This document shows positions 2,966-58,374 of a stretch of DNA of 64,000 nt, piece after piece; positions within the stretch are counted from its first letter, which is position 1, and every line of letters begins with the position of its first letter. The stretch lies in IMG/VR virus record IMGVR_UViG_3300032304_000956, positions 5,829 through 69,828 of that record. The stretch is one strand, 5' to 3'. The notes below the pieces were generated by a model. That model was not told where the DNA came from. It did no database searches and worked only from the letters and a program-made list of their open reading frames with translations. This stretch comes from a virus. The position numbers were made by a program, and so were the translations under genes.

Positions 2966-2973
2966 ACAATTAA

Positions 2974-4071: not shown

Positions 4072-4074
4072 ATA

Positions 4075-4764: not shown

Positions 4765-4795
4765 TAGTTGTATTTAAGTTACAGATTTGATTATG

Positions 4796-8787: not shown

Positions 8788-8796
8788 TTGAAATAT

Positions 8797-12005: not shown

Positions 12006-12039
12006 TAACTCTATTTATTTTGCAGATCACGAAATGTAA

Positions 12040-15973: not shown

Positions 15974-15997
15974 TTTGAGAATATTTAATGGCCCGAC

Positions 15998-16483: not shown

Positions 16484-16506
16484 TGATAATATTTATCAAA
16501 TGGATA

Positions 16507-16833
16507 TTATTCTGATTTCTTTTTCGGAGTTTTCCAAGATACTCGTTCAGAACTTTTCTTTTTATACATTTTACCTTTAATCTTCTTACACTGTGCTTTT
16601 GTAGGGCGACATGCAGGATAAGATCCTTTTGAAGTGTTGTTTCTTCCACATGGACCACCTGTTTTGCAATTGATCCATCCTTTGAATTTCTTGCCTTTTT
16701 TATCAACATGCGGAGCAAACCAATCTCTTAGGTTTTCCAACAATTGCAGTTGTGTGTATTCTTCTACTGTGGATTCAGAAAAAGTTAAACGCTCTTCAAT
16801 TACAGAGTTGTATAATTTATCGAATGTATTCAT
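16507..16833 (-). CDS. small basic conserved phage protein (WINCKTGGPCGR...YPACRP family)
   Basis: Likely start ATG 16833 overlaps the upstream TAA; motif recognised from aquatic phage proteins. Confidence 0.65.
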   Translation of the reverse strand: MNTFDKLYNSVIEERLTFSESTVEEYTQLQLLENLRDWFAPHVDKKGKKFKGWINCKTGGPCGRNNTSKGSYPACRPTKAQCKKIKGKMYKKKSSERVSWKTPKKKSE

Positions 16834-17855: not shown

Positions 17856-17959
17856 AAGTGTGGATTTTTTACTTCGAAGAATATTTAATTTATGTTCCAT
17901 TATTTATGATTATTTTGTATAATATTTTTAACACCAATCTCTACAAGCTAAATAATAGT

Positions 17960-29075: not shown

Positions 29076-29654
29076 ATGAGTGAAGAAATCAGACAAAGCC
29101 CATTGAATCAAGCAGCAAAAGATAAATTCCTTTTGGTGTTTGATTTGCCTCCTATTCTAAAGACATTTTCGAAGACTTATGAAAGGAACAACAGTTCTGT
29201 GATTCCTGATAACGTTCAATTCTCTATTTGGGGAACTAGCGTTCCTGAAATCACAGTTCCCGGTGTTGAAACTAGATACTCAGGTTCTACATTGTATGTA
29301 TCAAGCCACAACAAGAATAGTTACCCTCCAGTTTCAATTGACTTTGCGATTGATGACCAATACAACAACTATTGGTGTATATATCAATGGTTGAACTTGA
29401 TGCATGACCAAAAGACAGGGCAATATGACGAAAGACAAGTATTTGTAGATGCCAACTTCAACGATTACCAAACAGACATAACAGTTTACGGATTGGATGA
29501 ATATGGCAAAAAGAAAATCAAATTCGTTTATAAAAAAGCATTCCCAACCACTCTAAAAGGAATTGAGTATAATTATCAAGCAACTGGTGATATGCGAATT
29601 ACAAGCGGTTTTGTGTTCTTGTATAGTCAATTGCATGTAGAATTAATTGATTGA
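29076..29654 (+). CDS. tail completion/tube terminator (gp3-like)
   Basis: FAIDDQYNNYWCIYQWL...AFPTTL; tube-fold motifs next to the sheath gene. Confidence 0.65.
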   Translation: MSEEIRQSPLNQAAKDKFLLVFDLPPILKTFSKTYERNNSSVIPDNVQFSIWGTSVPEITVPGVETRYSGSTLYVSSHNKNSYPPVSIDFAIDDQYNNYWCIYQWLNLMHDQKTGQYDERQVFVDANFNDYQTDITVYGLDEYGKKKIKFVYKKAFPTTLKGIEYNYQATGDMRITSGFVFLYSQLHVELID

Positions 29655-29691
29655 ATTGAAAAAACATGCGACGATTTTTCTAAATAATAGC

Positions 29692-32019: not shown

Positions 32020-32023
32020 TAAC

Positions 32024-32058
32024 AAGAAAAAGTCAAGATTTAATCTTGACTTTTTCTT
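32024..32058. terminator. perfect 17-bp inverted repeat/terminator after the sheath gene
   Basis: aagaaaaagtcaagatt-t-aatcttgactttttctt. Confidence 0.7.
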
Positions 32059-32101
32059 TAGTTGATTGATAATTATGAAAATTACAAAGTATTAAGAAAT
32101 C

Positions 32102-33805
32102 ATGAATTTAAAAAATGAAATACGTAAATGTTTTGATGTTAAGGGCAACTTAAGTTTTAAAAAAATATCAAAAAATTTATTAAATGAGATAATAAAAGCA
32201 ACGTCATTTCTCGATGAATATAATGCGAAGCCCCAAGAGCGAGTTTATTGCATACTTAATGATATTAAAGAAATTATAAAATGTCCAATTACAAATAAAA
32301 AATTAAGATATTCTCCGCAGAATAAAAAATACAACAATTCATTTAATTATAGTCAAAAAAACAAAGTTGTAAAAAATAAATTCAATTACACAGAAAAAAA
32401 CAAAAGATCATCTGATGAATTGAAACAAAAATATTTAAATTCTGATTATAGTTTAATGAGTAAAGAAGAGTGTTCTGCATTTTTTCATAAACATTCAACC
32501 CAAGATAATGTTTCGTTTAGCATCTCTCGACTATCAAAATATCCTAATTTTGCATGTAGTGTTTTTTATTACACTCCATTCATTACATTGGATGATTTTT
32601 CAATATCTGAACGTGTTTATTGCATAGAACATAATATACAGACAACCCCAACAGATGATGAAAATAATCCTCTACCATTTATAAACAGGAAAAAAGGATA
32701 TAGTAAATATGCATCCCGCAAAGACATGCATGAAAAACAAATGATAACTATATCATCTCAAATAGAAGAAAAATTTGAAATCTTATCGTTCATTAAAGAC
32801 CAAAATACGACTACAACATCCAGAGTTGAAGTTAAATGCAAACAATGTGAACACATTTTCAAACCATTATTTAAAAATAAATTATGGAGCGTTATATATT
32901 GCCCTAATTGCAATGGTCATTCTGGCAGATCAAGAGAAGAAAATGAAGTTGTTGACTTTTTAAAAACTTTAGGGGTTGATAATATCATTTTAAATGACAG
33001 AAACGTGCTTAATGGACATGAATTGGATATTTATCTCCCCGACCATTCATTGGCAATTGAATACAATGGAATTTTGTGGCATTCATTCGGAACAACATTT
33101 CCGAATAACGCGGAAGATGAATCATATAAAAAACATAAACATTTAAAAAAGTATGAACAATGTTTAGATCAAGGGATATCTTTGATTACGATATTTGACA
33201 ATGAATGGAAATTGAAAAAAGATATAATAAAATCGATATTGTGTAATAAATTGAAAAAAACGTCTAATAAAATATATGCTCGTAAATGTAAATACAGTGA
33301 GGTTGGTTTGGATATTGCTAAAAAATTTCTTGATGTAAATCATAGACAAGGTTCTTGTAAATTTACAAAAGCTATTGGGTTATATTACAATAATGAACTG
33401 GTATCTTTGATGTGTTTTGGAAATAGAAAAATTACCAGAGGGGCATCAACATATGAATTAATTCGATTTTGTAATTTATTAAATACTCAAGTTATTGGGG
33501 GTGCTAGTAAAATTTTAAAACATTCAAACATTAAAAAATTTATATCTTATTGCGATTTGAGATACAGTAATGGCGAATTATATAAAAAATTAAATATGAA
33601 ATTAATATCAAAATCAAAACCAAACTATTATTATACATCAGACAACATCGTTCTATTACATAGAATGAATTTTCAAAAACACACATTGATAAAAACGGCG
33701 TCTGATAAAGAGAAAACAGAAAGAGAATTAATGTATGAAAGGGGTTACAGGAGAATCTACGATTGCGGCAATCTGGTATTTTTGTATGACGCGGACGCTT
33801 TTTGA
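32102..33805 (+). CDS. Hef-like homing endonuclease (repeats, Zn ribbon, PD-(D/E)xK, C-terminal GNAT-like domain)
   Basis: ERVYCI twice, CKQC..CPNC, ELDIYLPD..AIEYNG..WHS, IYARKC...YELIRFC...GGASK...RIYDCG; AT-rich insert between sheath and tube. Confidence 0.75.
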   Translation: MNLKNEIRKCFDVKGNLSFKKISKNLLNEIIKATSFLDEYNAKPQERVYCILNDIKEIIKCPITNKKLRYSPQNKKYNNSFNYSQKNKVVKNKFNYTEKNKRSSDELKQKYLNSDYSLMSKEECSAFFHKHSTQDNVSFSISRLSKYPNFACSVFYYTPFITLDDFSISERVYCIEHNIQTTPTDDENNPLPFINRKKGYSKYASRKDMHEKQMITISSQIEEKFEILSFIKDQNTTTTSRVEVKCKQCEHIFKPLFKNKLWSVIYCPNCNGHSGRSREENEVVDFLKTLGVDNIILNDRNVLNGHELDIYLPDHSLAIEYNGILWHSFGTTFPNNAEDESYKKHKHLKKYEQCLDQGISLITIFDNEWKLKKDIIKSILCNKLKKTSNKIYARKCKYSEVGLDIAKKFLDVNHRQGSCKFTKAIGLYYNNELVSLMCFGNRKITRGASTYELIRFCNLLNTQVIGGASKILKHSNIKKFISYCDLRYSNGELYKKLNMKLISKSKPNYYYTSDNIVLLHRMNFQKHTLIKTASDKEKTERELMYERGYRRIYDCGNLVFLYDADAF

Positions 33806-33828
33806 TAATCACATAACTAAATAACTAT

Positions 33829-34398
33829 ATGCCAGCGAATATTGAAACATTCTTCTCTCAAGCTTCCCAAAAGCAATTTGCCAGAGACTTCCTATTTAGA
33901 ATCAAAGACATTTCCTTTCCGGGTCTTTCCTTAAGGGGAGAAACCGATCTTGTTTATGCCAAGGCGGGAACTTTACCGGGCCGAACAATTGAAAACAAAA
34001 CTGTCAGTTATGCTGGTCAAGTTTTCAATATCGGAGGTAGAGCTACCTATGAAGGTGCTGAAGGTTATTCCATCAGCTTCTATTCAGACCAAGCCCTTGA
34101 TCTTAGAACAAAGCTTGAAAACGCTTCCCGAGTAGCGTTCAACAACGAAGACACTACTGCGAATCTTTGTATGCCCGGACCAGAAAGCTCCATCACTCTT
34201 GATATTCTTGCAATTCCTTGCACAAGAGATATCAATGCAACTTCAGGTCAACCACTTCAAATCGTCAAGACCATCAAGTTGATTGGTGTTGGCATTCGTA
34301 ATATCGGAGCTTTGACTTATTCTATCGCAGAAGGAACTGGTGATATTGTATCATTTGATGCTACATTTAGTTATCACTGGTATGAAGATTTCAGTTGA
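33829..34398 (+). CDS. tail tube protein (gp19-like)
   Basis: YAKAGTLPGRTI...YAG...GRATYEG, FDATFSYHWYE. Confidence 0.8.
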   Translation: MPANIETFFSQASQKQFARDFLFRIKDISFPGLSLRGETDLVYAKAGTLPGRTIENKTVSYAGQVFNIGGRATYEGAEGYSISFYSDQALDLRTKLENASRVAFNNEDTTANLCMPGPESSITLDILAIPCTRDINATSGQPLQIVKTIKLIGVGIRNIGALTYSIAEGTGDIVSFDATFSYHWYEDFS

Positions 34399-34414
34399 TC
34401 ACTAAATAGTTGAT

Positions 34415-35035
34415 ATGGGAATGCCAATCCAAATCAACGATTTCTTACAATCATTTAGCAGGGAGGCCAAATTTTGTTTGAGCCTCCCTGTCTTTTGGTC
34501 AATTTCAATTGATGGAGTTACAACAGGTGCGATAAATAATCAGTTGGAAAAAGCAGGTGAAAAATGGAAAGCTAATACAACGCCAAATGATATGAGTAAA
34601 GGTGATGCTGGCTCTATTTTAGTTGCTCAGAGTGTAACATTACCAACTGAATCATCAGAATTTGTAGCGTTGGACTTTGGCACAGGCAAAGGTGGTTTCT
34701 TACCAACTCATGCCCTGAATAATCGAATAAATTTCTTGAACAGAACTTTCTCTGTTAACATTTTGGAAACTGCCCAAGATTTGGAGCATGAATTTTTTAG
34801 ACCTTGGATGATTGCAGTAGGTATAAAAGGACTTATCGAAGATGGATCTCCTAGCTTAAAAGCCACTATGGTTGTGAAGCAATATGATAACCAAGGAAAC
34901 TTCAGAAAAGGTTATAAGCTTAATGGTGTTCATCCGACTGCTGTTGAGGGTTATACTTTAGATTATGATAATACCACGTTCACTATTAAAAGTGTAACGA
35001 TGGCTTGTTTGAATTATGAACCAATAGTTGGATAA
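34415..35035 (+). CDS. tail-tube-like baseplate protein (gp54-like)
   Basis: AQSVTLPTES, FFRPWM, VHPTAV. Confidence 0.55.
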   Translation: MGMPIQINDFLQSFSREAKFCLSLPVFWSISIDGVTTGAINNQLEKAGEKWKANTTPNDMSKGDAGSILVAQSVTLPTESSEFVALDFGTGKGGFLPTHALNNRINFLNRTFSVNILETAQDLEHEFFRPWMIAVGIKGLIEDGSPSLKATMVVKQYDNQGNFRKGYKLNGVHPTAVEGYTLDYDNTTFTIKSVTMACLNYEPIVG

Positions 35036-35760
35036 TGTTATCATTCCGCAAATTAAAAGAAGTGTCCTCATTTATAGAAACGGGAAGAGATGATAAATTC
35101 TATGAATTTTTGAATGAATTTGAAGGAGATACCGTTCAAGAAAAATTTAAATCTATTTTAAATGCATGGGAATATCATGTTAGCGATACTATAACATTTT
35201 CATTAGAAGGTAAAGAAATAACAATTCAATTATCTTATCTTGTAAATCAACTGTCTCAAAATTTAAATGATATTGTTATTATAAAAGATAATGATAACAC
35301 ATATGAATTGGGGATACCAGAAGAATTCACGTTCAATACAAATGATGTAATGCCTATTTATAACTTATTGAAAGTAGTTAAGTTTTCTGATATATCTTTA
35401 AATTTATCATCGTTATCTAAATCTGATAAACAATTGGTTATCAATAAATTACCAGCCAAGGTATTCTCTAAGATAGCAGAACATATTGCAAAAGACAAAT
35501 CTAAAGTTTACAAACTTGATAATCCGCTGTTAAGTTCGATAACAATTAATTTTTACACAAACCAACCTTATATTTTCTTAAAAGGATTGTTTTCTAATTA
35601 CACAAAAGAATATTTCCAAGATGTTATTTTTTACTTATCCAAGCGCATCGATGGAAATATTTTAATGGACTCTGACATTAAAGATATCAGCTTCTACATG
35701 AAGAAATACAACGATGAAATGCAAAGTCAACAAAATAACACTCCAAGACTTGATTTCTAA
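35035..35760 (+). CDS. baseplate hub assembly protein (gp26/gp51-like)
   Basis: Position and weak similarity to the downstream gp26-like gene. Confidence 0.4.
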   Translation: MLSFRKLKEVSSFIETGRDDKFYEFLNEFEGDTVQEKFKSILNAWEYHVSDTITFSLEGKEITIQLSYLVNQLSQNLNDIVIIKDNDNTYELGIPEEFTFNTNDVMPIYNLLKVVKFSDISLNLSSLSKSDKQLVINKLPAKVFSKIAEHIAKDKSKVYKLDNPLLSSITINFYTNQPYIFLKGLFSNYTKEYFQDVIFYLSKRIDGNILMDSDIKDISFYMKKYNDEMQSQQNNTPRLDF

Positions 35761-35782
35761 AAGTTTCAGGTAAATAGCAAAT

Positions 35783-36520
35783 ATGGACGACAACGTTAAG
35801 TCATTTCTTGAAAAAATCAACGAAATTAAATCTGATAAATTAAAGGTTGATGTAATATCTACTGGCAAACAAATTGAATGCGAGCCTTTGACATTCAAAC
35901 AACAAAAGGAAATCATTTCTACAATTACAGAAGGTATTGTAGGGGCTCTCAAGTTTCAAAAAGTAGTCAACGATGCAATTTTGGAAAACACAGGAGATAA
36001 AAACCTAACGGTCGTTGATAGACTTTTAATCTCCCTTCAATTGCGCTCTAATAGCGTTGGAACGGTTGTTAAATTTGACGATGAGAAATACGATGTGTTG
36101 TCTGAAGTTATTGAAAAATTGAAGTCGGTCAAGCCCACTACAACAAAAAAAATCCAAGGGATTATTAGCCTCGAATTGGAAATTCCTACATTGGTAGCAG
36201 AAAATCAAATTATAACATCTTGCGTCGATATTTTAAAGAAAGATGCTGATAAAGATATTGGTAAAAGCGTTGGAGATATTTACACATTTGAAATTGTCAA
36301 ATACATCAAAAACGTGACGATTGGAGAAGATTCAATTAACTTTAGTAATTTAGCTGTTCGCGATAGAGTTAAGATCGTGAATAATCTACCCCTTGTCTTG
36401 AATAAAGAAATTACTGCATTCATTCAAGCTTACAAAACTCTTGAAAACGATGCTCTTACTGTTCGTATTAAGGATTCTGATCGTTTAATTGATGTTGATG
36501 TCGCTTTCTTTGATTCATGA
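35783..36520 (+). CDS. baseplate hub assembly protein gp26-like
   Basis: PLTFKQQKEII...LTVVDRLLISLQLRSNSVG. Confidence 0.7.
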   Translation: MDDNVKSFLEKINEIKSDKLKVDVISTGKQIECEPLTFKQQKEIISTITEGIVGALKFQKVVNDAILENTGDKNLTVVDRLLISLQLRSNSVGTVVKFDDEKYDVLSEVIEKLKSVKPTTTKKIQGIISLELEIPTLVAENQIITSCVDILKKDADKDIGKSVGDIYTFEIVKYIKNVTIGEDSINFSNLAVRDRVKIVNNLPLVLNKEITAFIQAYKTLENDALTVRIKDSDRLIDVDVAFFDS

Positions 36521-36535
36521 TTCTAAATAAGTAAT

Positions 36536-38581
36536 GTGGAATCAAATGTTGAAATATTACCTACTTTAAATCGAATTCTTGGTTTTTTACAAACCATGGA
36601 AGGTGATAAAGGTATGCCAAAACAAGATAAATTGGCAGAAACCAATATTATTAATTCATCGATTGGTAATAGAGAAGCTTCGAAAAATACATTATCATCT
36701 CAAGAAAAAAACAAAACTACTGAGTTTGCAAAAATATTCAGTGACGTATTTGTTGAAATACAAAATGCGAAAAAACCGGATGTTGCTGAGAAAACAATCG
36801 TAGGTAGTATTGCCAAATCACAAACCAAAGCAACCACACCGATATCTCAAAAGCCCAAAGAAGAAATGTCATTACTGTCTGGTCTTGGAACTGGGTTGAT
36901 GTTAATTGTTGGGGGCATAGCCGCTCTTGTGAGTGGTTTGATGAATGATGGTCCTTTTAGAGGAGCATTAAAAATTCTATCCAGAATAGGAATAGAAGGC
37001 GGGATAGCGATATTGAAAAGAGTCGTTTCAACTGTATTTACATTGCTTAAAGAATTACCTGAGAAACTTTTTGGAAAACTTGGAGGGAAGTTTACAAAAT
37101 TTATAGGAGAATTTTCTGGTGGTTTGGGTGGTAAAGTTTTGGCCAAACTTGAAAAAGGATTTCTTGGAAAGATGGCCGTTAAAGTGCTCAAACCGCTATC
37201 CAAGGTTTTAACAAAAATTCCACTTATTGGAACTCTTATATCATTAGGGTTTGCGTATATACGTTTTAAAGACGGTGATATTGTCGGTGGTGTTATTGAT
37301 ACTGTAAGTGCTCTTGTTGGACTGTTGAGCTTAGTTCCCGGAGCAGCAGCATTTGTAATACCTATACAACTCGGTCTCGATGCGCTTAACGCTTTTCTCG
37401 ATTATAAATCAGATCAAGGCGAAGGAAAGCCGAAACTTTCTAAATTGGATATATTGGGAGATATGGTTAAATCGATTGGAAGTTTCTTGTGGGAAAACGC
37501 TAAAGATATTCCATTATTGGGAACATTTAAATATCTGGGAATGTCGTGGGATTCGTTTAAAAGTGGTAATCTTAATGAAGCTCTCAAATATCTCGCTTAT
37601 GGTATAGTCGCTATCATACCGGGCGGCGGCTTGATAATACGAGGTATTGATACATTGATGGCTTATCTCAATCCAGATGCCAAACCAGAAGAACCGAATC
37701 TTAATATAGCAGCTGCCGCTTCCTCCATATCATCATGGGCTAAGTCGATTGGCGATTGGATATGGTCAAACGGCGAAAAGATTCCAATTATTTCATCTTT
37801 TAAATATCTCTCAAAAGCTTGGGATTCATTTTCAAGTGGTGATATATTAAAGGGTCTTGAATACGTAGCACGTAGCATTCCGGGTATGGATATGCTTATA
37901 CAAGGTTACAATATGTTGTCGTCTTTATTCTCAACTACTGAATCAACTGACACATCAATTGGAAATACTAACACTAACTGGATTGGTAAAGTTAAAGATT
38001 TTGTTCGTTCTAAAATGAAAGACTTACCAATGGTTTTAAGAAAGCCGTTGGAGTGGCTGGGTATTGTGTCTGAGGACGCCGCCTCTTCCATGCAAACATC
38101 GACAATGGTATCAAATTTAAAAGATTCTGTGAGTTCTGGTTTTGAGAAATCAAAAAACTTTTTCAAAAATGTTTGGAGCGGTATCTCCAACACTGTATCA
38201 ACTAAGGTTGAACAAATAAAATCATTTGCATCTGGCACCTTAGATTCATTGAAGCCAGCTATCGAAGCACCTGTTAATAATGCACAAGCCATTCAAAACG
38301 GTAATGATAAGGTCGGTCAAAGAATGGCAAACATATCTTCTGTTCAAACTGAACGTTTGGGCTTAATGATATCTTTGTCTCAAAAGCACTTAACCGCATT
38401 GAATAATCTTATTACAATAGGTAATATGAGCTTGAATGAGCTTAAGAGAATGAACTCCTCTGCACAAACAGCGGCTATTCCAAATATACCTCAAATAAAT
38501 CCAATGCCAACAAAAGACATAATTGAATTTGATGATAATCGAGATGGTTATTTCACAAGTGTGTATAGATTGGGTGCCTAA
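36536..38581 (+). CDS. tape-measure/gp29-like protein
   Basis: Helical, hydrophobic segments, internal repeats (IPLLGTFKYL / IPIISSFKYL); position after gp26. Confidence 0.6.
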   Translation: MESNVEILPTLNRILGFLQTMEGDKGMPKQDKLAETNIINSSIGNREASKNTLSSQEKNKTTEFAKIFSDVFVEIQNAKKPDVAEKTIVGSIAKSQTKATTPISQKPKEEMSLLSGLGTGLMLIVGGIAALVSGLMNDGPFRGALKILSRIGIEGGIAILKRVVSTVFTLLKELPEKLFGKLGGKFTKFIGEFSGGLGGKVLAKLEKGFLGKMAVKVLKPLSKVLTKIPLIGTLISLGFAYIRFKDGDIVGGVIDTVSALVGLLSLVPGAAAFVIPIQLGLDALNAFLDYKSDQGEGKPKLSKLDILGDMVKSIGSFLWENAKDIPLLGTFKYLGMSWDSFKSGNLNEALKYLAYGIVAIIPGGGLIIRGIDTLMAYLNPDAKPEEPNLNIAAAASSISSWAKSIGDWIWSNGEKIPIISSFKYLSKAWDSFSSGDILKGLEYVARSIPGMDMLIQGYNMLSSLFSTTESTDTSIGNTNTNWIGKVKDFVRSKMKDLPMVLRKPLEWLGIVSEDAASSMQTSTMVSNLKDSVSSGFEKSKNFFKNVWSGISNTVSTKVEQIKSFASGTLDSLKPAIEAPVNNAQAIQNGNDKVGQRMANISSVQTERLGLMISLSQKHLTALNNLITIGNMSLNELKRMNSSAQTAAIPNIPQINPMPTKDIIEFDDNRDGYFTSVYRLGA

Positions 38582-42801: not shown

Positions 42802-43791
42802 ATGCTCAATCTGAATCACAAAAACATATTAATTACTGGAGGTAATGGATTTATTGGAAGTAATTTTATAGAATATATTAATAAACATTATACTTATGTT
42901 AATATTATAAATATAGATAAACAAGGAGTGGGATGGAGAGAAATAAGGTCTATTAAGTTTATTAATCATAATACTTATACTGAAATAGTTCGTAGTGTAT
43001 GTGATATTGATAATATTGGGGGATATATAGATACTATTGATTATGATTATGTATTCCATTTTGCAGCAGAATCTCATGTAGATAGATCTATTACCAATCC
43101 ATCATCCTTTGTATACAATAATTCTTATGGGACTGCTGTATTATTGGAATATCTATTAAAGAAAAAGTCTAACGCTAGAATTATCTGTATTTCTACAGAT
43201 GAAGTGTATGGCCATTTACACTTAGATGATCCTGCATTTACAGAGGATACTCCTCTCAATCCAAGAAGTCCATATTCTTCTTCTAAAGCTGCTAGTGATT
43301 TAATTGCATTGTCATTCCAAAGCACATTTGGTATAGATATTATTGTTACTCGTTGTTGTAATAATTTTGGACCGCATCAGAATGATGAGAAATTCATTCC
43401 TACCATTATTAAGAATGTTGTAAATGGTAAGAAGATTCCTGTTTATGGTCAAGGCACCAATATTAGAGAGTGGATTCACGTTGATGACCACAATAAGAGT
43501 ATTCTTGAAATTGCTGAAAGTGGCGAATCTGGTAAAGTATACAACATTGGCAGCGGTGTGGAAAAAACAAATTTGGAATTGATTCGAGAAATCATTGACA
43601 TTCTGCATCCAGATGCTACGGTCGATTCAAATTCATTCATCGAATTCGTAGAAGATCGTAAAGGTCATGATTTTCGCTATGCTATTGATACAGTAAATTA
43701 CACCAGAGCATTTGAACCAATGGACTTCAGCTATGCTTTAAAGGCGACCGTTGAATTCTACAAAAACAAATTCACCCCTAGCACATCATGA
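42802..43791 (+). CDS. rmlB: dTDP-glucose 4,6-dehydratase
   Basis: ITGGNGFIGSNF, HFAAESHVDRSI, STDEVYG, PYSSSKA, NIREWIHV, DRKGHDFRYAI. Confidence 0.95.
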   Translation: MLNLNHKNILITGGNGFIGSNFIEYINKHYTYVNIINIDKQGVGWREIRSIKFINHNTYTEIVRSVCDIDNIGGYIDTIDYDYVFHFAAESHVDRSITNPSSFVYNNSYGTAVLLEYLLKKKSNARIICISTDEVYGHLHLDDPAFTEDTPLNPRSPYSSSKAASDLIALSFQSTFGIDIIVTRCCNNFGPHQNDEKFIPTIIKNVVNGKKIPVYGQGTNIREWIHVDDHNKSILEIAESGESGKVYNIGSGVEKTNLELIREIIDILHPDATVDSNSFIEFVEDRKGHDFRYAIDTVNYTRAFEPMDFSYALKATVEFYKNKFTPSTS

Positions 43792-45034: not shown

Positions 45035-45445
45035 ATGGATACAAAACAAGTCATCGTAATGCGCAAAGATCTGAACATGCGCAAAGGAAAAATGATTGCG
45101 CAAGGCAGTCACGCCAGCATGGCATTCCTCACGAAAGGAATGTATTGGGCATCTGTGAATGATGGGTTCGAATTTTCCACGGAGACAATTTACGATTGGC
45201 GAGAAGTAGAAGAAATCAATCACTGGCTTAACAATTCATTTCGTAAAATTTGTGTCTATGTGAACAGCGAAGAAGAACTTCGTGAATTACATCAGAAGGC
45301 ACTTGACAATGGTTTGATCTCTCATATGATCACTGACAACGGAGCAACCGAATTCAATGGAGTTCCTACAATGACATGCTGCGCAATCGGACCACATTTT
45401 TGTCATAAATTTGAAGGGTTGACTGATCATTTACCACTACTATAA
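45035..45445 (+). CDS. pth2: peptidyl-tRNA hydrolase, Pth2 type
   Basis: KQVIVMRKDLNMRKGKMIAQGSHA, KICV, DNGATEF, AIGP, TDHLPLL. Confidence 0.9.
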   Translation: MDTKQVIVMRKDLNMRKGKMIAQGSHASMAFLTKGMYWASVNDGFEFSTETIYDWREVEEINHWLNNSFRKICVYVNSEEELRELHQKALDNGLISHMITDNGATEFNGVPTMTCCAIGPHFCHKFEGLTDHLPLL

Positions 45446-46309
45446 GTAACTCCAATACAATTTCATAGACGTTCTCATGAAAGGTTTCGCTAAAGCTTGA
45501 TTTATAGAGGATGAGTCACAATCATATTCTCTAGCAGCTTCGGAAATAAAATCAAATTCTTTGATCAAATTTTTCTGCTTATCATAACAAGCGACCCTTC
45601 TATGTTTCATATGAATTCTTTTTTCAATTTTTGGATCGTAGGTCGTCCACCCTTTGTGGCTTTTGTATCTATCTGGCGTTGTAAATAGACGGTGTATGAC
45701 TTTTTCATTTAAATTATATTTTCTGGCAAATGCGCACATATTTTCCCCAACTTTAACCTCTCCATAGTCTTTATGATATAACACTCTATTTTTTCTGTTT
45801 AATTCAGATTGATCATATTCCAACTCTGCTGAACACCATCCTTTCATTTGTTTCTTTTTACCTTTTAATAATTTTGCCATAGATGACCTATCAACATCTA
45901 TATACTCAGATGCATTTGTTATACTCGAAAAGGTTAAAATTTCACCAGTATAGATATTTTTAATTTTACATGGTATCACTCCCTGTCCTAGAGTTCCATC
46001 TCCACCATCGGTTAAATTGAATAACAGAGTTCCATTAGATTTAAATTTTTTAATAGTGACAATTTCTTTAAGCTTTAATTCTTCAAAAGTTAAATTCTCA
46101 CAAATCTCTAGGATGCTGAAAATTAAGTCTTCAAATCCATATTTATTAACATGATTCTGTAGAATAATATTTTTGTGTTTCTGAGATGCCAGCGAGTTTT
46201 TGTGATATTGCCATCTTCGATCTATAGAATTTGCAATCCCGATATAAACTCTTTTAGTTTGTTGACTTTCTATTTTGTAGAGTCCTCGAATTTGTGGTCT
46301 TTTAGCCAT
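45440..46309 (-). CDS. GIY-YIG (Seg-like) homing endonuclease
   Basis: GLYKI...VYIGIA..RRW..H, FNLTDGGDG, NUMOD1-like tail; TAAATA 5 nt before ATG 46309. Confidence 0.85.
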   Translation of the reverse strand: MAKRPQIRGLYKIESQQTKRVYIGIANSIDRRWQYHKNSLASQKHKNIILQNHVNKYGFEDLIFSILEICENLTFEELKLKEIVTIKKFKSNGTLLFNLTDGGDGTLGQGVIPCKIKNIYTGEILTFSSITNASEYIDVDRSSMAKLLKGKKKQMKGWCSAELEYDQSELNRKNRVLYHKDYGEVKVGENMCAFARKYNLNEKVIHRLFTTPDRYKSHKGWTTYDPKIEKRIHMKHRRVACYDKQKNLIKEFDFISEAAREYDCDSSSINQALAKPFMRTSMKLYWSYL

Positions 46310-52077: not shown

Positions 52078-52335
52078 ATGCAACAAGAACAATACATATA
52101 CATTAACAAATATGATCATAAGATTTACTACAAAGACCGAGCGATGACTATCTGTCACCGCCTAGATGGACCAGCAATTGAATATGCTAATGGATATAAA
52201 GAATGGTATGTCGATGGTAAACGTCTATCAAAAGAACAGTTCAATGCTCTTACAGCACCAGCATTAGAATTGACATTGGAAGATATTGCAAGTAAGTTTG
52301 GTATTGATGTAAGCAAGATCAAGATCAAGAAGTAA
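52078..52335 (+). CDS. HRxDGPA-repeat family protein (single unit)
   Basis: HRLDGPAIEYANGYKEWYVDGKR. Confidence 0.65.
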   Translation: MQQEQYIYINKYDHKIYYKDRAMTICHRLDGPAIEYANGYKEWYVDGKRLSKEQFNALTAPALELTLEDIASKFGIDVSKIKIKK

Positions 52336-52357
52336 GGAGCAGTAATAAAATAAACAT

Positions 52358-52744
52358 ATGCAATCAAAGGAATACATTCTTATCACACGACCAATCAAAC
52401 CTCTTGAATATTACAAAGGCGGCGAGGTGATTTCTGTAGAAAGAATCAGCGAAGATGAAAAATTGAATTTTGATCCTGATTATGATTATTATCTCGCAAG
52501 AGATTATGATTATGATGATCCATTTGCTATGAAGTTGTTGAAGTCTGCAAAGCCAAACTTTAAAAATCCTAATTACGAGCAGGAGAAAGCAAAGTATGAC
52601 GATGATTATAGGCAATACAAGAGCCAATTAAAGAAATGGAACACTGCGAACAAACTGTATGAAGCTGAACAAGCAGAACTGACCAAGCAAAAGGAAATGC
52701 AACTGCTGAAACAACTCCAAGAAAAATACGGCAAAATCGATTAA
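52358..52744 (+). CDS. hypothetical protein
   Basis: 128-aa ORF. Confidence 0.6.
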   Translation: MQSKEYILITRPIKPLEYYKGGEVISVERISEDEKLNFDPDYDYYLARDYDYDDPFAMKLLKSAKPNFKNPNYEQEKAKYDDDYRQYKSQLKKWNTANKLYEAEQAELTKQKEMQLLKQLQEKYGKID

Positions 52745-52761
52745 AAGCAAAGTAATGAATG

Positions 52762-53322
52762 TTATTTCGGGTTCTTCGACCAGTTACTGACAACCAACAT
52801 GCAATAGTTTATAAAATCATCTTTGTTTAAATCTTTTTTCATTAAATTTATAACATGGGTGCATATCACAATGTTATCAGGTTCGTAGCCCATTTTGGAA
52901 TCGATTCTATCAATAGAAAAATGATCAGGGTTGTTGGGGGTCACTTTCATTTTCAATCCGGTGTAATAACAATATCCTTGCTGTTTATTCCATTGATTTA
53001 CAACGTCTTCAACTGTTAAATTAAACGCTCTCCCTTTTTGACCACTTCGATATTTTGCTTGATAGAATTTATAACGTATAGCCTCTTCCAACGTTTGTGT
53101 TTTTCTGCTGTCGTGCCACCTCTTCTTGCCAATTTCATTTTCGCATTTTCTACATCGTCTTCTGTATAAATGTTTATTTTTTCCAAAATCTTCTAAATAT
53201 TTCACATCTTTACAATTACAACATCGCCTAACTCCTATCTTAAATAATTCTCGTTGTGCTTTTTGTGGAGATGGATAAGTATCTTCAATTATTTTTATTT
53301 GTTTTTCAATGTCATCATTCAT
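52762..53322 (-). CDS. HNH-type homing endonuclease
   Basis: CCNC..CRKC, CYYTG, SIDRIDSKMGYEPDNIVIC...NLMK; opposite strand; TAAATA upstream. Confidence 0.8.
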   Translation of the reverse strand: MNDDIEKQIKIIEDTYPSPQKAQRELFKIGVRRCCNCKDVKYLEDFGKNKHLYRRRCRKCENEIGKKRWHDSRKTQTLEEAIRYKFYQAKYRSGQKGRAFNLTVEDVVNQWNKQQGYCYYTGLKMKVTPNNPDHFSIDRIDSKMGYEPDNIVICTHVINLMKKDLNKDDFINYCMLVVSNWSKNPK

Positions 53323-53372
53323 AATATTATTTAGTCAAATTTGTCATTTTTTTGCACGAAAGTTCGAATCTT

Positions 53373-53650
53373 TTGTTCAGATTCTGCGTCTTTGCAGAGT
53401 GGGCATTCAATTTTTCACCGATGGTCAATACATGGTGAATGTTAAAGAATTCAATCCTGAGTATCACAAACTGCTTATGGATATCAAGACCTGCCCTGAG
53501 AAATATGAAAGGGATCAACTTGAACAGATGGTGAATGATGAATTTGCCGAGCTTGAACAGGTGATTGATAATACCGATGTTGAATACAAATTTGATGATG
53601 AGCTTGCTGCTCAAATCATTCTTGATGGACGCAAGCATTTTATAGATTAA
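53373..53650 (+). pseudogene. 3' fragment of an RlaP/YcgL-like nucleotidyltransferase
   Basis: FVQILRLCRVGIQFFTDG..VNV...LLMDIK resembles the C-terminal helical domain; no catalytic N-terminal half. Confidence 0.5.
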
Positions 53651-53671: not shown

Positions 53672-54322
53672 ATGAAAAAAACAACATACGGTATCATCAT
53701 TGATACAGAACAATACGCTGGAAATTTTGAACGTGAACTTTGCGCATTTCTTACGGGAAGAGTCGGAGAATGTGGCGTCGGAGACGAATATGAAGATGAA
53801 AATCCTTTGTTTGAAAATGTAATCGACGTTCCTGATGAGGATGGTTGCGAACGACCATGTTCAATTTACCCAACAAAAGGATGGTTTAATCATGGCTTTG
53901 GCGGGAATTTTAAAGAAGGTCAAGAACAGGAGGCACTTGAGGATTATAGAAAACAGGTATCAGCATATTATAATCAAGGAATCAAGAATTTAAAGATAAT
54001 CGAAAAAGATCTTAAAGCGGGTAAAACCGTTGGAAACTGGACTCTTGAAGCTATTGCGAGAGATCGAAAACATAAAGAATCGGAAATTGAAAAAGCCGAA
54101 AAGCTCGAAACTGTTAATAAATATCCAGCAGCTTTAAGCGTGGTAATATACATGGACTCACCGCCAACACAAGAGCAAATCGATTACATCAAAAACAAAA
54201 TTGGCGGATTTCGAGAAGCTTTCTTAAAAGAACATACTTACAAAGATGATTTCGAGTTTACCGTTACTGGCATACGAACGATGAAATCTTCAACAAACGA
54301 AGAAACTTTTGACGTAGCATGA
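53672..54322 (+). CDS. conserved phage protein (DTEQYAGNFERELCA family)
   Basis: N-terminal motif recognised; 216 aa. Confidence 0.6.
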   Translation: MKKTTYGIIIDTEQYAGNFERELCAFLTGRVGECGVGDEYEDENPLFENVIDVPDEDGCERPCSIYPTKGWFNHGFGGNFKEGQEQEALEDYRKQVSAYYNQGIKNLKIIEKDLKAGKTVGNWTLEAIARDRKHKESEIEKAEKLETVNKYPAALSVVIYMDSPPTQEQIDYIKNKIGGFREAFLKEHTYKDDFEFTVTGIRTMKSSTNEETFDVA

Positions 54323-54729
54323 GAGAACTTAAATTTCGCGTTTGGGACAATTTGAAAAAAGAATGGATCTCAAACAAACACATCTGGAGAATGCGAACAG
54401 ATGAGCATGGCGTCGGAGAAATTCTTCCAAATACATTTTACTGGAAGCAACATCCAGATGGATTGACTTACCAGCAATACACTGGCTTGAAAGACAAAGA
54501 CGGTGTTGAGATTTATGAAGGGGATATTATCGTGTTTCCATTGTTCGAAAATGATAATACTGTGTCATATAATTATTTTCAAGTGATATGGGATAATTTT
54601 TATTCTGCTTGGTCTTTTGCAAAAAAAGACGGGAAGCCACTTACACATACAGGTTGGAGAATTTATTATAGCGATGCAACTGAAGTCATCGGAAACCTGT
54701 TTGAAAATCCCGAACTACTAGAACATTGA
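54319..54729 (+). CDS. YopX-family protein 1
   Basis: RELKFRVWD / QYTGLKDKDGVEIYEGDI / EVIGNLFENPELL. Confidence 0.9.
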   Translation: MRELKFRVWDNLKKEWISNKHIWRMRTDEHGVGEILPNTFYWKQHPDGLTYQQYTGLKDKDGVEIYEGDIIVFPLFENDNTVSYNYFQVIWDNFYSAWSFAKKDGKPLTHTGWRIYYSDATEVIGNLFENPELLEH

Positions 54730-54986
54730 AAAAGAAATCAGACAATCAAATAGCACTTGATCGTGCTCTCAATGACATTGATGCGATGGGTATTCTCAGT
54801 CTGATGTCTTATATGAAAAGTGTTGTGGTGCAAGAATTTGATCGTGATAGAAATAAAATTCTACAGTATCACTTAACTGGTTACGCTGATACAGCACTCT
54901 CAAATCTTGATAAAGTTAGAGATAAGTTTGAAGAGGTTTACGACCGAGAATTTAAAAAATTATACGACCAAAGAGAACAAGAATAA
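54726..54986 (+). CDS. hypothetical protein (cargo in YopX array)
   Basis: TTG start overlapping the YopX1 stop. Confidence 0.5.
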   Translation: MKKKSDNQIALDRALNDIDAMGILSLMSYMKSVVVQEFDRDRNKILQYHLTGYADTALSNLDKVRDKFEEVYDREFKKLYDQREQE

Positions 54987-54989
54987 ATC

Positions 54990-55199
54990 ATGAATATCAA
55001 AACACTAGATCAGGCAATTATTGAGACACTCGACAAAACCATTTCCTTACAAATCAAGGTATTGAATAAACTTCTCAAAAATAGTCAACTCAACCCCGGT
55101 CCTTTGCTTGAAAAGGTCAAGGAGTTATCTCAATCCCTTGTTGACCATGGATATGAACCTATTCCATATGTTGAAGAAATGCCAGAAGACAAGGTGTAA
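54990..55199 (+). CDS. hypothetical protein (cargo in YopX array)
   Basis: 69-aa ORF. Confidence 0.5.
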   Translation: MNIKTLDQAIIETLDKTISLQIKVLNKLLKNSQLNPGPLLEKVKELSQSLVDHGYEPIPYVEEMPEDKV

Positions 55200-55217
55200 A
55201 CAAGTCTAATAGAACAA

Positions 55218-55319
55218 ATGAGAACCGTTTTAAACTACCTGATTCTTATTGCATGGTTTGTCGTTGCATTCGTTGAAATTTCCACATCATTAGTCATTGA
55301 TAAATTTACAAAACGCTGA
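55218..55319 (+). CDS. 33-aa membrane peptide
   Basis: Manual ORF MRTVLNYLILIAWFVVAFVEISTSLVIDKFTKR. Confidence 0.4.
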   Translation: MRTVLNYLILIAWFVVAFVEISTSLVIDKFTKR

Positions 55320-55334
55320 ACTACTAGAACAGAA

Positions 55335-55802
55335 ATGAAGGAAATTAAATTTAGAGTGTGGTCGAAAGAGGATAAATCATTTTTACATGCTGATGATATT
55401 GCTATCCGTAATAATGGCAATGTTCTCATTTATGATTGGCATCGCGATTACCGTAAATCATGGAGTTCATCATATGACAATCATACCATTCAGCAATACA
55501 CAGGTCTCAAAGACAAAGACGGCAACGAAATCTATGAAGGTGATATTGTTCGATTCAACGAACCTGTGGAATTGTCAGACGGACTTTTTCTTTCGACTTT
55601 GTATGTTTTTGAATTTTACAATGGCTCTTTCTTGAGACCATACATTTACCAATCTCTCAACGGTGGCAAGTTCATAAACCTCGGGGAAAACAAACTGAAT
55701 CCAACAGGAAGAGCGAAATTGGAGGATAATCCATATTTCGACTTGACTAAAGCAGAGATTGTTGGTAATATCTTCGAAACACCTTTTGAAATAGACTTAT
55801 GA
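55335..55802 (+). CDS. YopX-family protein 2
   Basis: All three YopX motifs present. Confidence 0.9.
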   Translation: MKEIKFRVWSKEDKSFLHADDIAIRNNGNVLIYDWHRDYRKSWSSSYDNHTIQQYTGLKDKDGNEIYEGDIVRFNEPVELSDGLFLSTLYVFEFYNGSFLRPYIYQSLNGGKFINLGENKLNPTGRAKLEDNPYFDLTKAEIVGNIFETPFEIDL

Positions 55803-55864
55803 GAGAACTAAAATTCAGAGTATATGCAAAAGTAAACGATAACGACGAAGATTATGATTCCTGA
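55799..55864 (+). pseudogene. YopX N-terminal remnant
   Basis: MRELKFRVYAKVNDNDEDYDS*. Confidence 0.65.
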
Positions 55865-56069
55865 AAAAGACAAGAAATACGCAATTGCTTTTTATCACCC
55901 TCACTGGCGTGAATGTGACTTTGTTGGAATTGCAACGTGTAACGGTGAGCTTGATGGATTTGGAGATGAAGATAACTATGAGCAATGGTATGGCTTTACC
56001 AATCCAAAATATCCAACTGAAACTTTATGGTTTGCGTCTCAGGATATTGTATGTGAAGTGAATCCATAA
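55854..56069 (+). CDS. hypothetical protein (cargo in YopX array)
   Basis: 71-aa ORF between the YopX remnant and YopX3. Confidence 0.55.
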   Translation: MIPEKDKKYAIAFYHPHWRECDFVGIATCNGELDGFGDEDNYEQWYGFTNPKYPTETLWFASQDIVCEVNP

Positions 56070-56443
56070 TGAGCAGAGAACTTAAATTTAGAATTTTCGA
56101 CAAAGACGTTAAACGATTCTTAACAGAAGAGGATGTTAAAGATTTTGAATTATTCCTAACTACAAACGGTGAGGTATATAGTCAAAAGTTTGGAACCATT
56201 CACACATCATACAAAGCTCAACAATACACTGGCTTGAAAGACAAGAACGGCGTGGAGATTTACGAAGGGGATATTCTTAAACATGATATTGGACTTGGAC
56301 CACTGTATTGGCAAGTGGTTTGGGACTCTGTAGCTGGTCAATGGAGAATTAACAAAGAACACGGGGGAAATACTGGAGAATGGTTTGACAATTATTCGGT
56401 AGCTGGTAATATCTTCGAAAACCCTGAACTAATTAAACAATGA
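56069..56443 (+). CDS. YopX-family protein 3
   Basis: All three YopX motifs present. Confidence 0.9.
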   Translation: MSRELKFRIFDKDVKRFLTEEDVKDFELFLTTNGEVYSQKFGTIHTSYKAQQYTGLKDKNGVEIYEGDILKHDIGLGPLYWQVVWDSVAGQWRINKEHGGNTGEWFDNYSVAGNIFENPELIKQ

Positions 56444-56871
56444 GCAGAGAAATTAAATTTAGAGTTTGGTCCAAAATTCGTAATAAGTTTACAAAATTTG
56501 TAAATGATTTAATCGGAAATGATATATACTTTACTATTTCTATCTATGGTGAGATTGTAGCTATTGATAGATATGGAGATGAAATAGACATAAATCAAAA
56601 TGATTTCGAGATTCAACAATACACTGGCCTGAAAGACAAGAACGGTGTGGAGATTTATGAAGGTGATATCGTATCCGAACAGTTTACCCAAGAAATGGCA
56701 GCAAATGGGGAGTCGGCAAATATAGGTCGTATTTTTTTTGCTGCTGGAACTTTTATGATTGATGGTGATGGGCCATTGTATGAACATACATTCTCACTCA
56801 CACCAGATATACTTGAGGATTATGTTGTTATCGGCAACATCTACAAAAACCCTGAACTACTAGAACAATGA
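56440..56871 (+). CDS. YopX-family protein 4
   Basis: All three YopX motifs present. Confidence 0.9.
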   Translation: MSREIKFRVWSKIRNKFTKFVNDLIGNDIYFTISIYGEIVAIDRYGDEIDINQNDFEIQQYTGLKDKNGVEIYEGDIVSEQFTQEMAANGESANIGRIFFAAGTFMIDGDGPLYEHTFSLTPDILEDYVVIGNIYKNPELLEQ

Positions 56872-57323
56872 GCAGAGAAATTAAATTTAAAGTATGGGAC
56901 AATGAATATAAAGAATATTCAAATTGGACTAACCGTGATCCTTTTTTTAGCGTATCTCATGGCAAATTATTCTTTTGGGAAAGAACTCAAAATGAAGATG
57001 GAAAATATAGCGGAGATATAATTTTAGAAGACAATGGTGATAGATTCACGCTGCTTCAATACACTGGTCTGAAAGACAAGAACGGTGTGGAGATTTATGA
57101 AGGTGATATTGTCAAAGCCCATCCCGCTGAACGTTGGGGAATGGGTATTGATCAGTCTCAATACGACTACTATTTGCTGAAATCTCCAAAGGTGGTTTTG
57201 TATAAAAATCTATCATTTAAATTATTTGACAATAATGAAGACAATTCATATAGTTATTATTTGGATCAGCACGTTGAAGTCATCGGAAACCTTTACGAAA
57301 ATCCAGAACTATTAAAACAATGA
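56868..57323 (+). CDS. YopX-family protein 5
   Basis: All three YopX motifs present. Confidence 0.9.
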   Translation: MSREIKFKVWDNEYKEYSNWTNRDPFFSVSHGKLFFWERTQNEDGKYSGDIILEDNGDRFTLLQYTGLKDKNGVEIYEGDIVKAHPAERWGMGIDQSQYDYYLLKSPKVVLYKNLSFKLFDNNEDNSYSYYLDQHVEVIGNLYENPELLKQ

Positions 57324-57670
57324 AAAGAGAAATTAAATTCCGAATCTGGATTAGCGATACTGCTCGCTTCATCTATTTTAATGTATTGGATATATTGACC
57401 GATGTTAGAGAAAAAGATCGAGAAAATGTTCAACAATACACTGGCCTAAAAGACAAAAATGGTAAGGAAATCTATGAAGGTGATATTATCAATGGTGAAA
57501 TTTGGATAAATGATCCAAATGGAAAAAGTGGATTTGCCAAAATTACAAATCGGAAGATCTACTTCCAAAGTGGAACTTTCATGGTTGATATTAGAGATTA
57601 TATACATAATGTGTATAAGATCGAAGTGGTCGGCAACCTTTACGAAAACCCTGAACTACTAAAACAATGA
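57320..57670 (+). CDS. YopX-family protein 6
   Basis: All three YopX motifs present. Confidence 0.9.
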   Translation: MKREIKFRIWISDTARFIYFNVLDILTDVREKDRENVQQYTGLKDKNGKEIYEGDIINGEIWINDPNGKSGFAKITNRKIYFQSGTFMVDIRDYIHNVYKIEVVGNLYENPELLKQ

Positions 57671-58374
57671 GCAATTATATCAAACCCGTTCTCCTGATTG
57701 GAGACATTCATGGTGCTTTTGGTCGCTTGAAAAATCTTGTTCACCAACAAGGTATCGAAAACTGTTACCTTATTTGTGTTGGTGATCTTGGCATTGGATT
57801 TAAAAGAACACAAAATGGTGAAATGCTTGCTTGTGGTGATCTTAATGATTATTTTGCCAAGAAGAATATCCACTTCATGTCGATTCATGGCAACCACGAT
57901 GATCCGGCTTATTTCAATGGTGAACATCGTATCAGAATGGGCAACTTTGAATTGCTGCCTGACTACGAAACCAAAGAGCTTAATGGTGAAAAATTCCTTT
58001 TTGTCGGAGGAGCTATCAGCATTGACCGTAAACACAGAGTTCCCGGTCAGAGTTATTGGCACGACGAAACATTCGTTCTAAAGCCAGAATTGGTTACAGA
58101 ATGTGATGTGCTGGTTACTCACTCTGGCCCGTCTTGGAATGGACCCATGGACAAGGACGGGTTATCAGGTTGGTGTGATAAAGACCCGGAGCTTTGGGAT
58201 GAATGTCTCAAAGAGCGTAAAGATCACGATGAACTAATTCGTCTTGCTAAACCCAAGATGCATTATTGTGGACACTTCCATTCATACCACTGGGTTGAAA
58301 TGAATGGATGTTACTCCACGATTCTTGCCATTGAGCAAGTCAAAGAGCATAAACTTATCGAATCTACCTTTTAA
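57667..58374 (+). CDS. calcineurin-like metallophosphoesterase
   Basis: GDIHG, VGDLG, HGNHD, VTH, CGHFH. Confidence 0.88.
   Translation: MSNYIKPVLLIGDIHGAFGRLKNLVHQQGIENCYLICVGDLGIGFKRTQNGEMLACGDLNDYFAKKNIHFMSIHGNHDDPAYFNGEHRIRMGNFELLPDYETKELNGEKFLFVGGAISIDRKHRVPGQSYWHDETFVLKPELVTECDVLVTHSGPSWNGPMDKDGLSGWCDKDPELWDECLKERKDHDELIRLAKPKMHYCGHFHSYHWVEMNGCYSTILAIEQVKEHKLIESTF

Follow-up and report, generated by a model that had tools for sequence, protein, structure and literature searches.

Six YopX genes with a common block layout

The window, a 64,000-nucleotide (nt) stretch of the IMG/VR virus record IMGVR_UViG_3300032304_000956 (positions 5,829 to 69,828; record length 69.8 kb, estimated completeness 34%, 36% G+C), carries at 54319-57670 six full-length genes of the YopX family (PF09643/TIGR01671), referred to here as W1 to W6. 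All six match PF09643 (63-80 bits against a cut-off of 22.4 bits, E-values of 2e-22 to 3e-17), and five of the six also pass the TIGR01671 cut-off of 41.3 bits, with W3 scoring 38.6. They fall into phrog_98, which is labelled 'unknown function' and has no PHROG category, and beyond YopX the Pfam scan of the six genes returned a single sub-threshold row (DUF6089 for W2, 16.4 versus 23.2 bits). We regard the locus as an interrupted six-gene tandem array whose N- and C-terminal cassettes are exchanged at constant blocks to give a combinatorial repertoire, and we put the probability of this reading at about 0.8.

Each copy consists of an N-block (xREIKFRVW), an N-module, an M-block (QYTGLKDKNGxEIYEGDI), a C-module and a T-block (GNxxENPELLxx), and the modules are numbered after the gene that carries them, from N1+C1 in W1 to N6+C6 in W6. 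All six genes lie on the plus strand. W1 (54319..54729, 136 amino acids [aa], Pfam E 2.1e-22) has its N-block at 54319-54345, its M-block at 54475-54528 and its T-block at 54691-54729, and W2 (55335..55802, 155 aa, E 3.1e-17) has its M-block at 55494-55547 and, at 55764-55802, a variant T-block with the end GNIFETPFEIDL. These are followed by W3 (56069..56443, 124 aa, E 4.2e-20; M-block 56222-56275, T-block 56405-56443), W4 (56440..56871, 143 aa, E 6.7e-20; M-block 56617-56670, T-block 56833-56871), W5 (56868..57323, 151 aa, E 4.4e-22; M-block 57057-57110, T-block 57285-57323) and W6 (57320..57670, 116 aa, E 1.5e-19; M-block 57434-57487, T-block 57632-57670). W3 to W6 and the phosphoesterase gene downstream of them are linked by 4-nt ATGA overlaps. 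The array is interrupted twice, between W1 and W2 and between W2 and W3. A six-copy array, as proposed in an earlier reading of the sequence alone (the sequence-only reading), therefore stands as to the number of PF09643 genes but not as to contiguity: small open reading frames (ORFs), a 71-aa gene and relics lie between copies 1 and 2 and copies 2 and 3.

The alignment of the six copies has 22 invariant columns, and nucleotide identity in aligned columns reaches 0.80 (N-block), 0.83 (M-block) and 0.69 (T-block) versus 0.37 in all other columns, which bears out the alternation of constant and variable segments noticed earlier. A repeat finder recovered the M-block and the stop/start junction each as a six-copy family, the latter being the recurrent junction that had likewise been pointed out. 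The six M-blocks have a mean pairwise nucleotide identity of 0.85 (best pair 96%) and a median exact run of 14 nt (maximum 41 nt), with most paralogue pairs having exact runs of only 8-23 nt in common, and a control set of 47 M-blocks, drawn from 44 loci of unrelated low-GC phages, has a pairwise identity of 0.78 and a median exact run of 11 nt. The description of the M-block as nearly identical in DNA thus fits some pairs (the 96% pair and the 41-nt run) but not the array as a whole, where a mean of 85% compares with 78% among unrelated genes. At identical M-block residues the same codon is used in 170 of 253 cases (0.67) within the array, in 178/290 (0.61) against the related phage genome L001 described below and in 8965/17544 (0.51) among unrelated phages. 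Over all three blocks the count is 311/474, above the 0.48 expected from window codon usage (simulated mean 226, standard deviation 14, maximum 276 in 2000 draws). TAC encodes the first tyrosine of the M-block motif in 34 of 43 unrelated genes, indicating that its constancy is family-wide. Synonymous sites of the M-block, for which saturation had been raised earlier as a possibility, are mostly diverged among the copies (mean proportion of synonymous differences, pS, 0.57; range 0.18-0.87), and same-codon use still stands at 0.67 versus 0.51. The three blocks also recur in the solved YopX structures 2qyz, 2ox7, 2p84 and 2i2l, which come from other organisms. The blocks are family motifs that are conserved mainly as protein, and the excess of DNA identity is only modest.

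Chimeric genes in two related phages

A search of IMG/VR with the flanking genes returned one close relative, L001 (also G001), and one distant relative (L002) that has no YopX gene there. L001 is a complete genome of 197,682 bp that has terminal repeats. It carries four YopX genes at the equivalent place, ahead of the phosphoesterase gene, as well as one solo YopX copy elsewhere. When every gene was split at the M-block and the modules of the window were compared with those of L001, three related pairs emerged: N1 with gene 4845-5282 (77% aa identity), N5 with gene 5488-5985 (73%) and C2 with the same gene 5488-5985 (69%), all remaining module pairs being 11-36% identical. Because N5 and C2 both match gene 5488-5985, this gene is a chimera of an N5-type and a C2-type module, and gene 4845-5282 joins an N1-type module to a different C-module. 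At the DNA level, similarity between W1 and gene 4845-5282 extends from the ATG through the M-block, is absent throughout the C-module and resumes at the T-block, continuing to about 25 nt downstream, a pattern that points to a cassette replaced by two crossovers. An exact-peptide search with the L001 chimera found only the chimera itself and distant YopX genes. For N1, N5 and C2, the ratio of nonsynonymous to synonymous divergence (dN/dS) between window and L001 is about 0.1 or below, a value obtained with synonymous sites saturated or nearly so.

A second IMG/VR contig, L104, is much closer to the window than L001. Its gene A matches W1 in the N part (151/156 nt, 96.8%) and not in the C part (46.9%), and conversely matches W2 in the C part (249/255 nt, 97.6%) and not in the N part (46.6%), making it an N1+C2 gene. 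The neighbouring gene B, when compared with W1, is 44.4% identical in the N part, identical at 46/54 positions in the M-block, 161/162 in the C-module and 36/39 in the T-block, and 45% identical downstream. The two crossovers sit at different places of the M-block, that of gene A in the 5' part and that of gene B in the last dozen bases. Reassortment of the variable segments, which the sequence-only reading had proposed, is thus seen in both relatives, and in L104 it takes the form of module DNA of 97-99% identity beside unrelated DNA.

Modules and their partners in metagenome proteins

From a collection of 5.8 billion proteins we obtained 345 distinct YopX proteins and scored a module as matched when it was at least 70% identical to a window module. 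Among the 105 matches, 101 have a partner other than that of the window. N1 recurs in 38 proteins and C2 in 12, each once with its window partner; C1 is found in 2 proteins, one of them with its window partner, and N2 in a single protein, which has the window partner. None of the other matches keeps the window pairing: N3 occurs in 3 proteins, C3 in 15 (one of which, P0087, has N5), N4 in 3, C4 in 17, N5 in 11, N6 in 2 and C6 in 1, and C5 is matched by no protein. Window modules also meet in new pairs (N1+C2, N1+C3, N1+C4, N5+C3 and N4+C6), among them P0126, in which N4 (98%) is fused to C6 (100%), as a crossover from the W4 M-block into that of W6 would be expected to yield. In one alignment the C2 half stands at 94-97% identity behind about 10 unrelated N halves. 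Clustering at 60% sorted the N halves of the 345 proteins into 127 clusters and the C halves into 152; these occur in 257 combinations and form 51 four-gamete squares, with the C2 cluster paired with 23 different N clusters. Since the proteins were picked by their likeness to the queries, these counts show diversity and not frequencies. A metagenome scan with the C2 module gave 219 pattern matches, none of which was confirmed. The notion that segment pairings are fixed across strains thus fails on the re-paired metagenome matches as well as on the L001 and L104 chimeras. We conclude that N- and C-modules are discrete cassettes under purifying selection that assort independently among paralogues and related phages, and that they are not hypermutating loops.

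Four tandem YopX genes also lie at 7058-8791 of L175, a different phage contig of 108.8 kb. One of its C-modules matches that of P0279, which pairs it with N6, and another resembles C4 of the window, so the module pool spans several phage lineages. Across the 182 sources sampled, 79 have one YopX copy and 17 have two, whereas four copies were confined to L175 and the L001 contig, and the window was the single source with six. A megablast search of the locus against 50,697 public phage records gave only a 42-nt match.

Exchange junctions and copy-number change

A junction profile was computed from the first 130 proteins. In the 403 pairs with a common N-module and different C-modules, identity is high up to the last M-block residue (M18) and amounts to 6-27% from position +2, and the 549 pairs with a common C-module and different N-modules are about 5% alike until position -3 of the M-block and alike from its first residue. 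The exchange junction hence lies inside the 18-residue M-block.

We then compared the locus with the Logan contigs of four runs, of which three belong to the source study (likely including the source sample) and one to a second study; runs X4 and X6-X20 contained small shares of the locus and contribute nothing to the evidence. All 11 contig joints fall at block edges (21 of 22 ends), and the joint 55821->56218 is present in two runs of two studies (X2 and X5). A 13.3-kb contig of run X5, which is the freshwater run from the second study, carries N4 with another short C-module and a T-block, then the whole of W2, an N-block followed by 102 other nt and C3, then N6 with 148 other nt and a T-block, and finally the phosphoesterase gene. 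In this run W4 and W5 are cleanly lost at the joint 56445->57326, which has 14 nt common to both sides, and the 139 nt of C6, from M-block end to T-block start, give way to the 148 other nt (joint 57490->57630). Copy-number change at the constant blocks, another element of the sequence-only reading, accordingly has observed instances in the two-gene loss of W4 and W5 and in the N4+C6 fusion: block junctions also delete, fuse or reorder whole genes.

A predicted common core

The six genes belong to the YopX family by sequence, and W2, as modelled, does so by fold as well. An AlphaFold model of W2 built from a 149-sequence alignment reached a predicted local distance difference test (pLDDT) score of 79.7 and replaced a poor model from 15 sequences (pLDDT 59.1). 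Compared with solved YopX structures, it aligned to 2ox7 with a Z-score of 10.0 (122 residues aligned, root-mean-square deviation 4.5), to 2qyz with 9.9, to 2p84 with 8.3 and to 2i2l with 6.7, and a fold search beyond YopX gave a next chain with a Z-score of only 3.0. In the model the blocks fall on strands at residues 6-10, 50-59/65-67/70-73 and 141-145, which are predicted core strands. The residues YEGD and GN are invariant or nearly so in the 149 sequences, and this would fit a common site on the core. Small-barrel look-alikes (SAWADEE, KOW and Tudor; Foldseek probability at most 0.25, Z-score at most 3.0) were considered and set aside as too weak to support either a function or a two-barrel build. 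PADLOC, applied to the array and the small ORFs, returned nothing meaningful (one stray TPR match, E 0.004), and no toxin or immunity families were found in the Pfam, PHROG and PADLOC scans of the array and the small ORFs.

How the exchanges may arise

We propose that the cassettes would be exchanged by homologous recombination, through a phage recombinase of the RecA/UvsX type or during repair of cuts made by homing endonucleases. Exchanges would begin and end in the block-coding DNA, which is about 78-85% common to any two members with exact runs of 11-41 nt, and because crossovers would be confined to this DNA every product would be in frame and foldable. The outcome would be a combinatorial repertoire, with specificity set by the two modules, perhaps towards a host or defence target, and the conserved core providing an activity or scaffold that all members have in common; the sequence-only reading had named anti-defence or host-factor binding as a possible role. 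The complete L001 genome encodes a RecA-family protein, and homing endonuclease genes stand beside the arrays of the window (52762-53322) and of L104 (1174-1944). A dedicated diversity machine, be it a diversity-generating retroelement, integron-type attC cassettes or T4-type promoter/stem-loop cassettes, is in our view highly improbable: reverse transcriptase (PF00078) was found in neither of two records, the 34%-complete window record and the complete L001 genome, no inverted repeat of at least 14 nt within 200 nt exists in 54200-57800, copies 3-6 overlap by 4 nt and leave no intergenic room, and the unit of exchange is half a gene. Promoter-like sites occur at chance level (34 versus 32.6 ± 6.4), which also tells against our own proposal, and of the 11 terminator-like sites (4.9 ± 2.3 expected) none parts the genes meaningfully. 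Taken together, the lack of a reverse transcriptase, of hairpins and of intergenic room, the RecA-family protein and the flanking endonucleases lead us to read the exchanges as homologous recombination or break repair.

Several further observations weigh against block-guided exchange as we propose it. The block DNA is barely more conserved in the array than between unrelated phages (85% versus 78%; same-codon use 0.67 versus 0.51), the mean M-block pS of 0.57 bears no strong mark of conversion, and a median exact run of 14 nt is short by the standards of RecA-type recombination. Two modules show no exchange, as the one relative of N2 keeps C2 and C5 has no relative, and neither PADLOC nor the fold searches gave a functional lead. 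Most of the protein evidence stems from metagenome assemblies chosen by similarity, with checks at the DNA level covering L001, L104 and the Logan contigs; the run evidence itself consists of assembled contigs, in which the uncovered parts of the locus in X2, X3 and X5 are not evidence of absence.

The low excess of block identity and the short exact runs would also suit junctions that are not set by block microhomology at all, with breaks arising anywhere by illegitimate recombination, template switching or homing-endonuclease repair and only joins at core positions folding and surviving. The endonuclease genes adjoining both arrays and the predicted location of the blocks on core strands of the fold would agree with such a filter. 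Yet every crossover seen is in register and free of junction indels, the joint that deletes W4 and W5 has 14 nt common to both sides, two crossovers lie at different places in one M-block as homology tracts predict, and the lineage has its own RecA-family recombinase, and we therefore hold a pure selection filter to be unlikely, if the most serious of the alternatives. Because the excess over unrelated YopX genes is small and the blocks are family-wide motifs, the data would suit homology-driven crossover and selection on in-register products alike. Of the earlier idea that the blocks are microhomology sites for shuffling, the location of junctions at the blocks stands, but special conservation of their DNA does not (85% versus 78%).

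That the chimeras are artefacts of assemblers jumping between paralogues at the M-block seems improbable to us. The evidence does come mostly from assemblies, and in the source sample the M-blocks of W4 and W5 coincide with breaks between Logan contigs, whose pieces stop at 56658, 57098 and 57109; two contigs both contain the 41-nt stretch 57069-57109, which is as long as the longest exact run between M-blocks. Most exact runs between paralogues (8-23 nt) are below the usual k-mer sizes, however, no reciprocal halves occur in the complete 197.7-kb genome of L001, which has terminal repeats, and the modules of the chimeras differ by 3-30% from those of the window and so were not cut from the same reads. 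The pairs N1+C2 and other-N+C1 of L104 moreover recur as P0009/P0241 on 140,550-bp contigs from two sources, and the joint 55821->56218 was recovered independently of a single run or study. On the window data alone it would suffice to assume no shuffling, that is, old duplicates whose loops have diverged beyond recognition and whose motifs are kept by protein constraint, an explanation in keeping with the largely diverged synonymous sites of the M-block (pS 0.57) and with motifs that are family-wide. Modules that are 94-99% identical beside unrelated partners, the 51 four-gamete squares and a dN/dS of about 0.1 in supposedly variable modules leave this explanation almost no room, and exchange of cassettes at the constant blocks remains our preferred account.

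Interrupting genes, relics and flanks

Two unrelated small ORFs on the plus strand, 54726..54986 (86 aa, TTG start) and 54990..55199 (69 aa), lie between W1 and W2 and have no match in Pfam, PHROG or PADLOC; the former shares homology over its first ~25 nt with the extended 3' end of L001 gene 4845-5282. At 55294..55338 (plus strand) they are followed by a decayed YopX T-block relic that reads ..SLINLQNAELLEQK up to its stop and overlaps the ATG of W2, and the repeat finder places a copy of the T-block/start junction with 64% identity at 55295-55349. Run X5 has a complete YopX gene whose end lies immediately ahead of W2 (joint 57673->55341). Just ahead of the relic, a 25-codon ORF (55218-55293) encodes a strongly hydrophobic product, MRTVLNYLILIAWFVVAFVEISTSL, and may be a small membrane peptide or a chance ORF.

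The second interruption comprises a YopX N-block relic of 21 codons that ends in a stop (55799..55864, plus strand; MRELKFRVY...) and a stand-alone 71-aa gene (55854..56069, plus strand) that sits where relatives have an N-module and has no Pfam, PHROG or PADLOC match. The family of the 71-aa gene has 14 library matches with E<=1e-3 (best E 5.8e-23), 11 of which are 62-76 aa long and aligned end to end. We considered whether relic and 71-aa ORF form a frameshifted seventh YopX gene and rejected this because the ORF belongs to a stand-alone family of equal length. In runs X2 and X5 the N-block of the relic runs via 102 other nt into the M-block of W3 and C3 (joint 55821->56218), and given this joint in two runs, the relic is the remainder of a gene whose N-module was replaced by the 71-aa ORF and N3.

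On the left the array is flanked by a gene of 216 aa (53672..54322, plus strand; phrog_23621, function unknown) whose stop overlaps the start of W1 and whose relatives are at most 44% identical, with none in the array locus or other loci of the L001 contig. The conserved right flank is a calcineurin-like metallophosphoesterase gene (57667..58374, plus strand; PF00149, E 8.8e-12) whose start overlaps the stop of W6 and whose product is 87% identical to the protein encoded directly after the L001 array. Flanks are kept between the window and L001, and gene content of the array region is wholly different. The neighbours of the array are accessory genes (RNA ligase, phosphoesterase and YqeY), with the tail module located at 1-17900 and 29076-38581. 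The large genes of the window (large terminase, tail sheath, tube, baseplate wedge and clamp loader) indicate a big contractile-tailed phage, and the array is carried in the accessory region of this uncultured freshwater myovirus, whose genome measures about 200 kb.

Farther upstream, at 52078-53650, a nucleotidyltransferase gene is truncated to its 3' part (53309-53650), which is identical at 71 of 92 residues to residues 159-250 of a 251-aa L001 gene product. Its 5' part is replaced by two small ORFs and a minus-strand HNH/endonuclease VII-like gene (52762-53322), in what looks like a homing-endonuclease-associated replacement. The tail sheath gene (29692-32019) is separated from a tube-like gene (33829-34398) by a gene for a 567-aa HNH homing endonuclease (32102-33805), and a further tube-like gene (29076-29654) precedes the sheath gene. 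The third endonuclease gene of the window, a homing endonuclease gene at 45440-46309 on the minus strand, has phrog_314 as its best match and a weaker match to phrog_5123, which carries the GIY-YIG motif; a GIY-YIG motif can also be read in the N-terminus of the translation of L104 1174-1944, directly after the L104 YopX genes. phrog_540, a nucleotide-sugar epimerase family, is matched by both 21980-22864 (minus strand) and 42802-43791 (plus strand), one of the matches being strong (E 2e-75).

Significance and comparison with known systems

YopX is among the commonest phage families without a known function, with four solved structures and no assay. In the openly accessible text of phage genome papers it is handled as a single-copy gene whose function is unknown, often under the wrong name of a Yersinia virulence protein: it appears there as 'Yersinia outer protein X' or as a virulence or pathogenicity factor, and 2i2l is listed as 'Protein yopX from Bacillus subtilis'. 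This looks like a confusion of names that is spreading through annotations. Six-copy arrays and exchange of half-gene modules are not described in the openly accessible YopX literature covered by full-text search. The locus shows that YopX is a fixed core with two independently exchangeable, selectively kept modules, which exist in nature in hundreds of N x C combinations. YopX thereby becomes a testable design, with the core for a common activity and the modules for specificity, and the natural chimeras would be ready specificity swaps. As a warning for annotation, YopX 'orthologues' of related phages are often chimeras.

A more far-reaching and tentative idea, which we think could well be wrong, is that YopX arrays provide phages with a combinatorial repertoire for recognition. 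A beta core would carry a two-part N/C specificity surface, and recombination guided by the blocks, both inside the array and with phages infecting the same cell, would deal pairs from a pool common to several freshwater lineages, so as to track variable host targets such as defence proteins. If true, this would be a recombination-based counterpart of antigenic-variation cassette systems for a non-structural phage protein.

Among known systems, the hyperplastic accessory regions of T4-type phages, in which gene shuffling mediated by a promoter/stem-loop is said to have been described by Arbiol and colleagues in 2010, resemble the YopX locus in that the array region differs wholly in gene content between relatives. 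Their unit, however, is a whole gene between intergenic regulatory repeats, whereas the YopX unit is half a gene between coding motifs. Short conserved pre-toxin motifs have a role in the exchange of polymorphic toxins. In these toxins (CdiA, Rhs and others), the variable C-terminal domain can be traded for that of a stand-alone cassette (Zhang et al. 2012, PMC3482391), and they are like the YopX genes in combining a constant part with swappable ends, in diversifying by recombination and in leaving fragments beside the genes. Unlike them, YopX swaps both halves and is phage-borne, with no toxin/immunity pair evident.

The closest likeness is with the gp38 adhesins and distal tail-fibre genes of T-even phages, in which hypervariable segments lie between conserved glycine-rich motifs according to the accessible text of Trojet et al. 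(2011, PMC3157838), which also cites Tetart et al. 1996/1998 for the same system. On that text, the two systems are alike in having variable segments split by structural-core motifs and an interchangeable pool of segments across related phages. They differ in that gp38 is a single-copy receptor-binding protein of the virion with a known role, whereas YopX is a small protein encoded in a tandem array whose junctions also change copy number. The Pfam scan shows no sequence relation of the YopX copies to gp38, and the constant blocks are not glycine-rich. By analogy, the YopX array would appear to work like gp38 without being a member of that group, which would extend the T-even adhesin principle to a small non-structural gene family in which the same junctions drive copy-number change. 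Exchange bounded by motifs is thus already known in T-even adhesins, and shuffling below the level of the gene is what is new for YopX.

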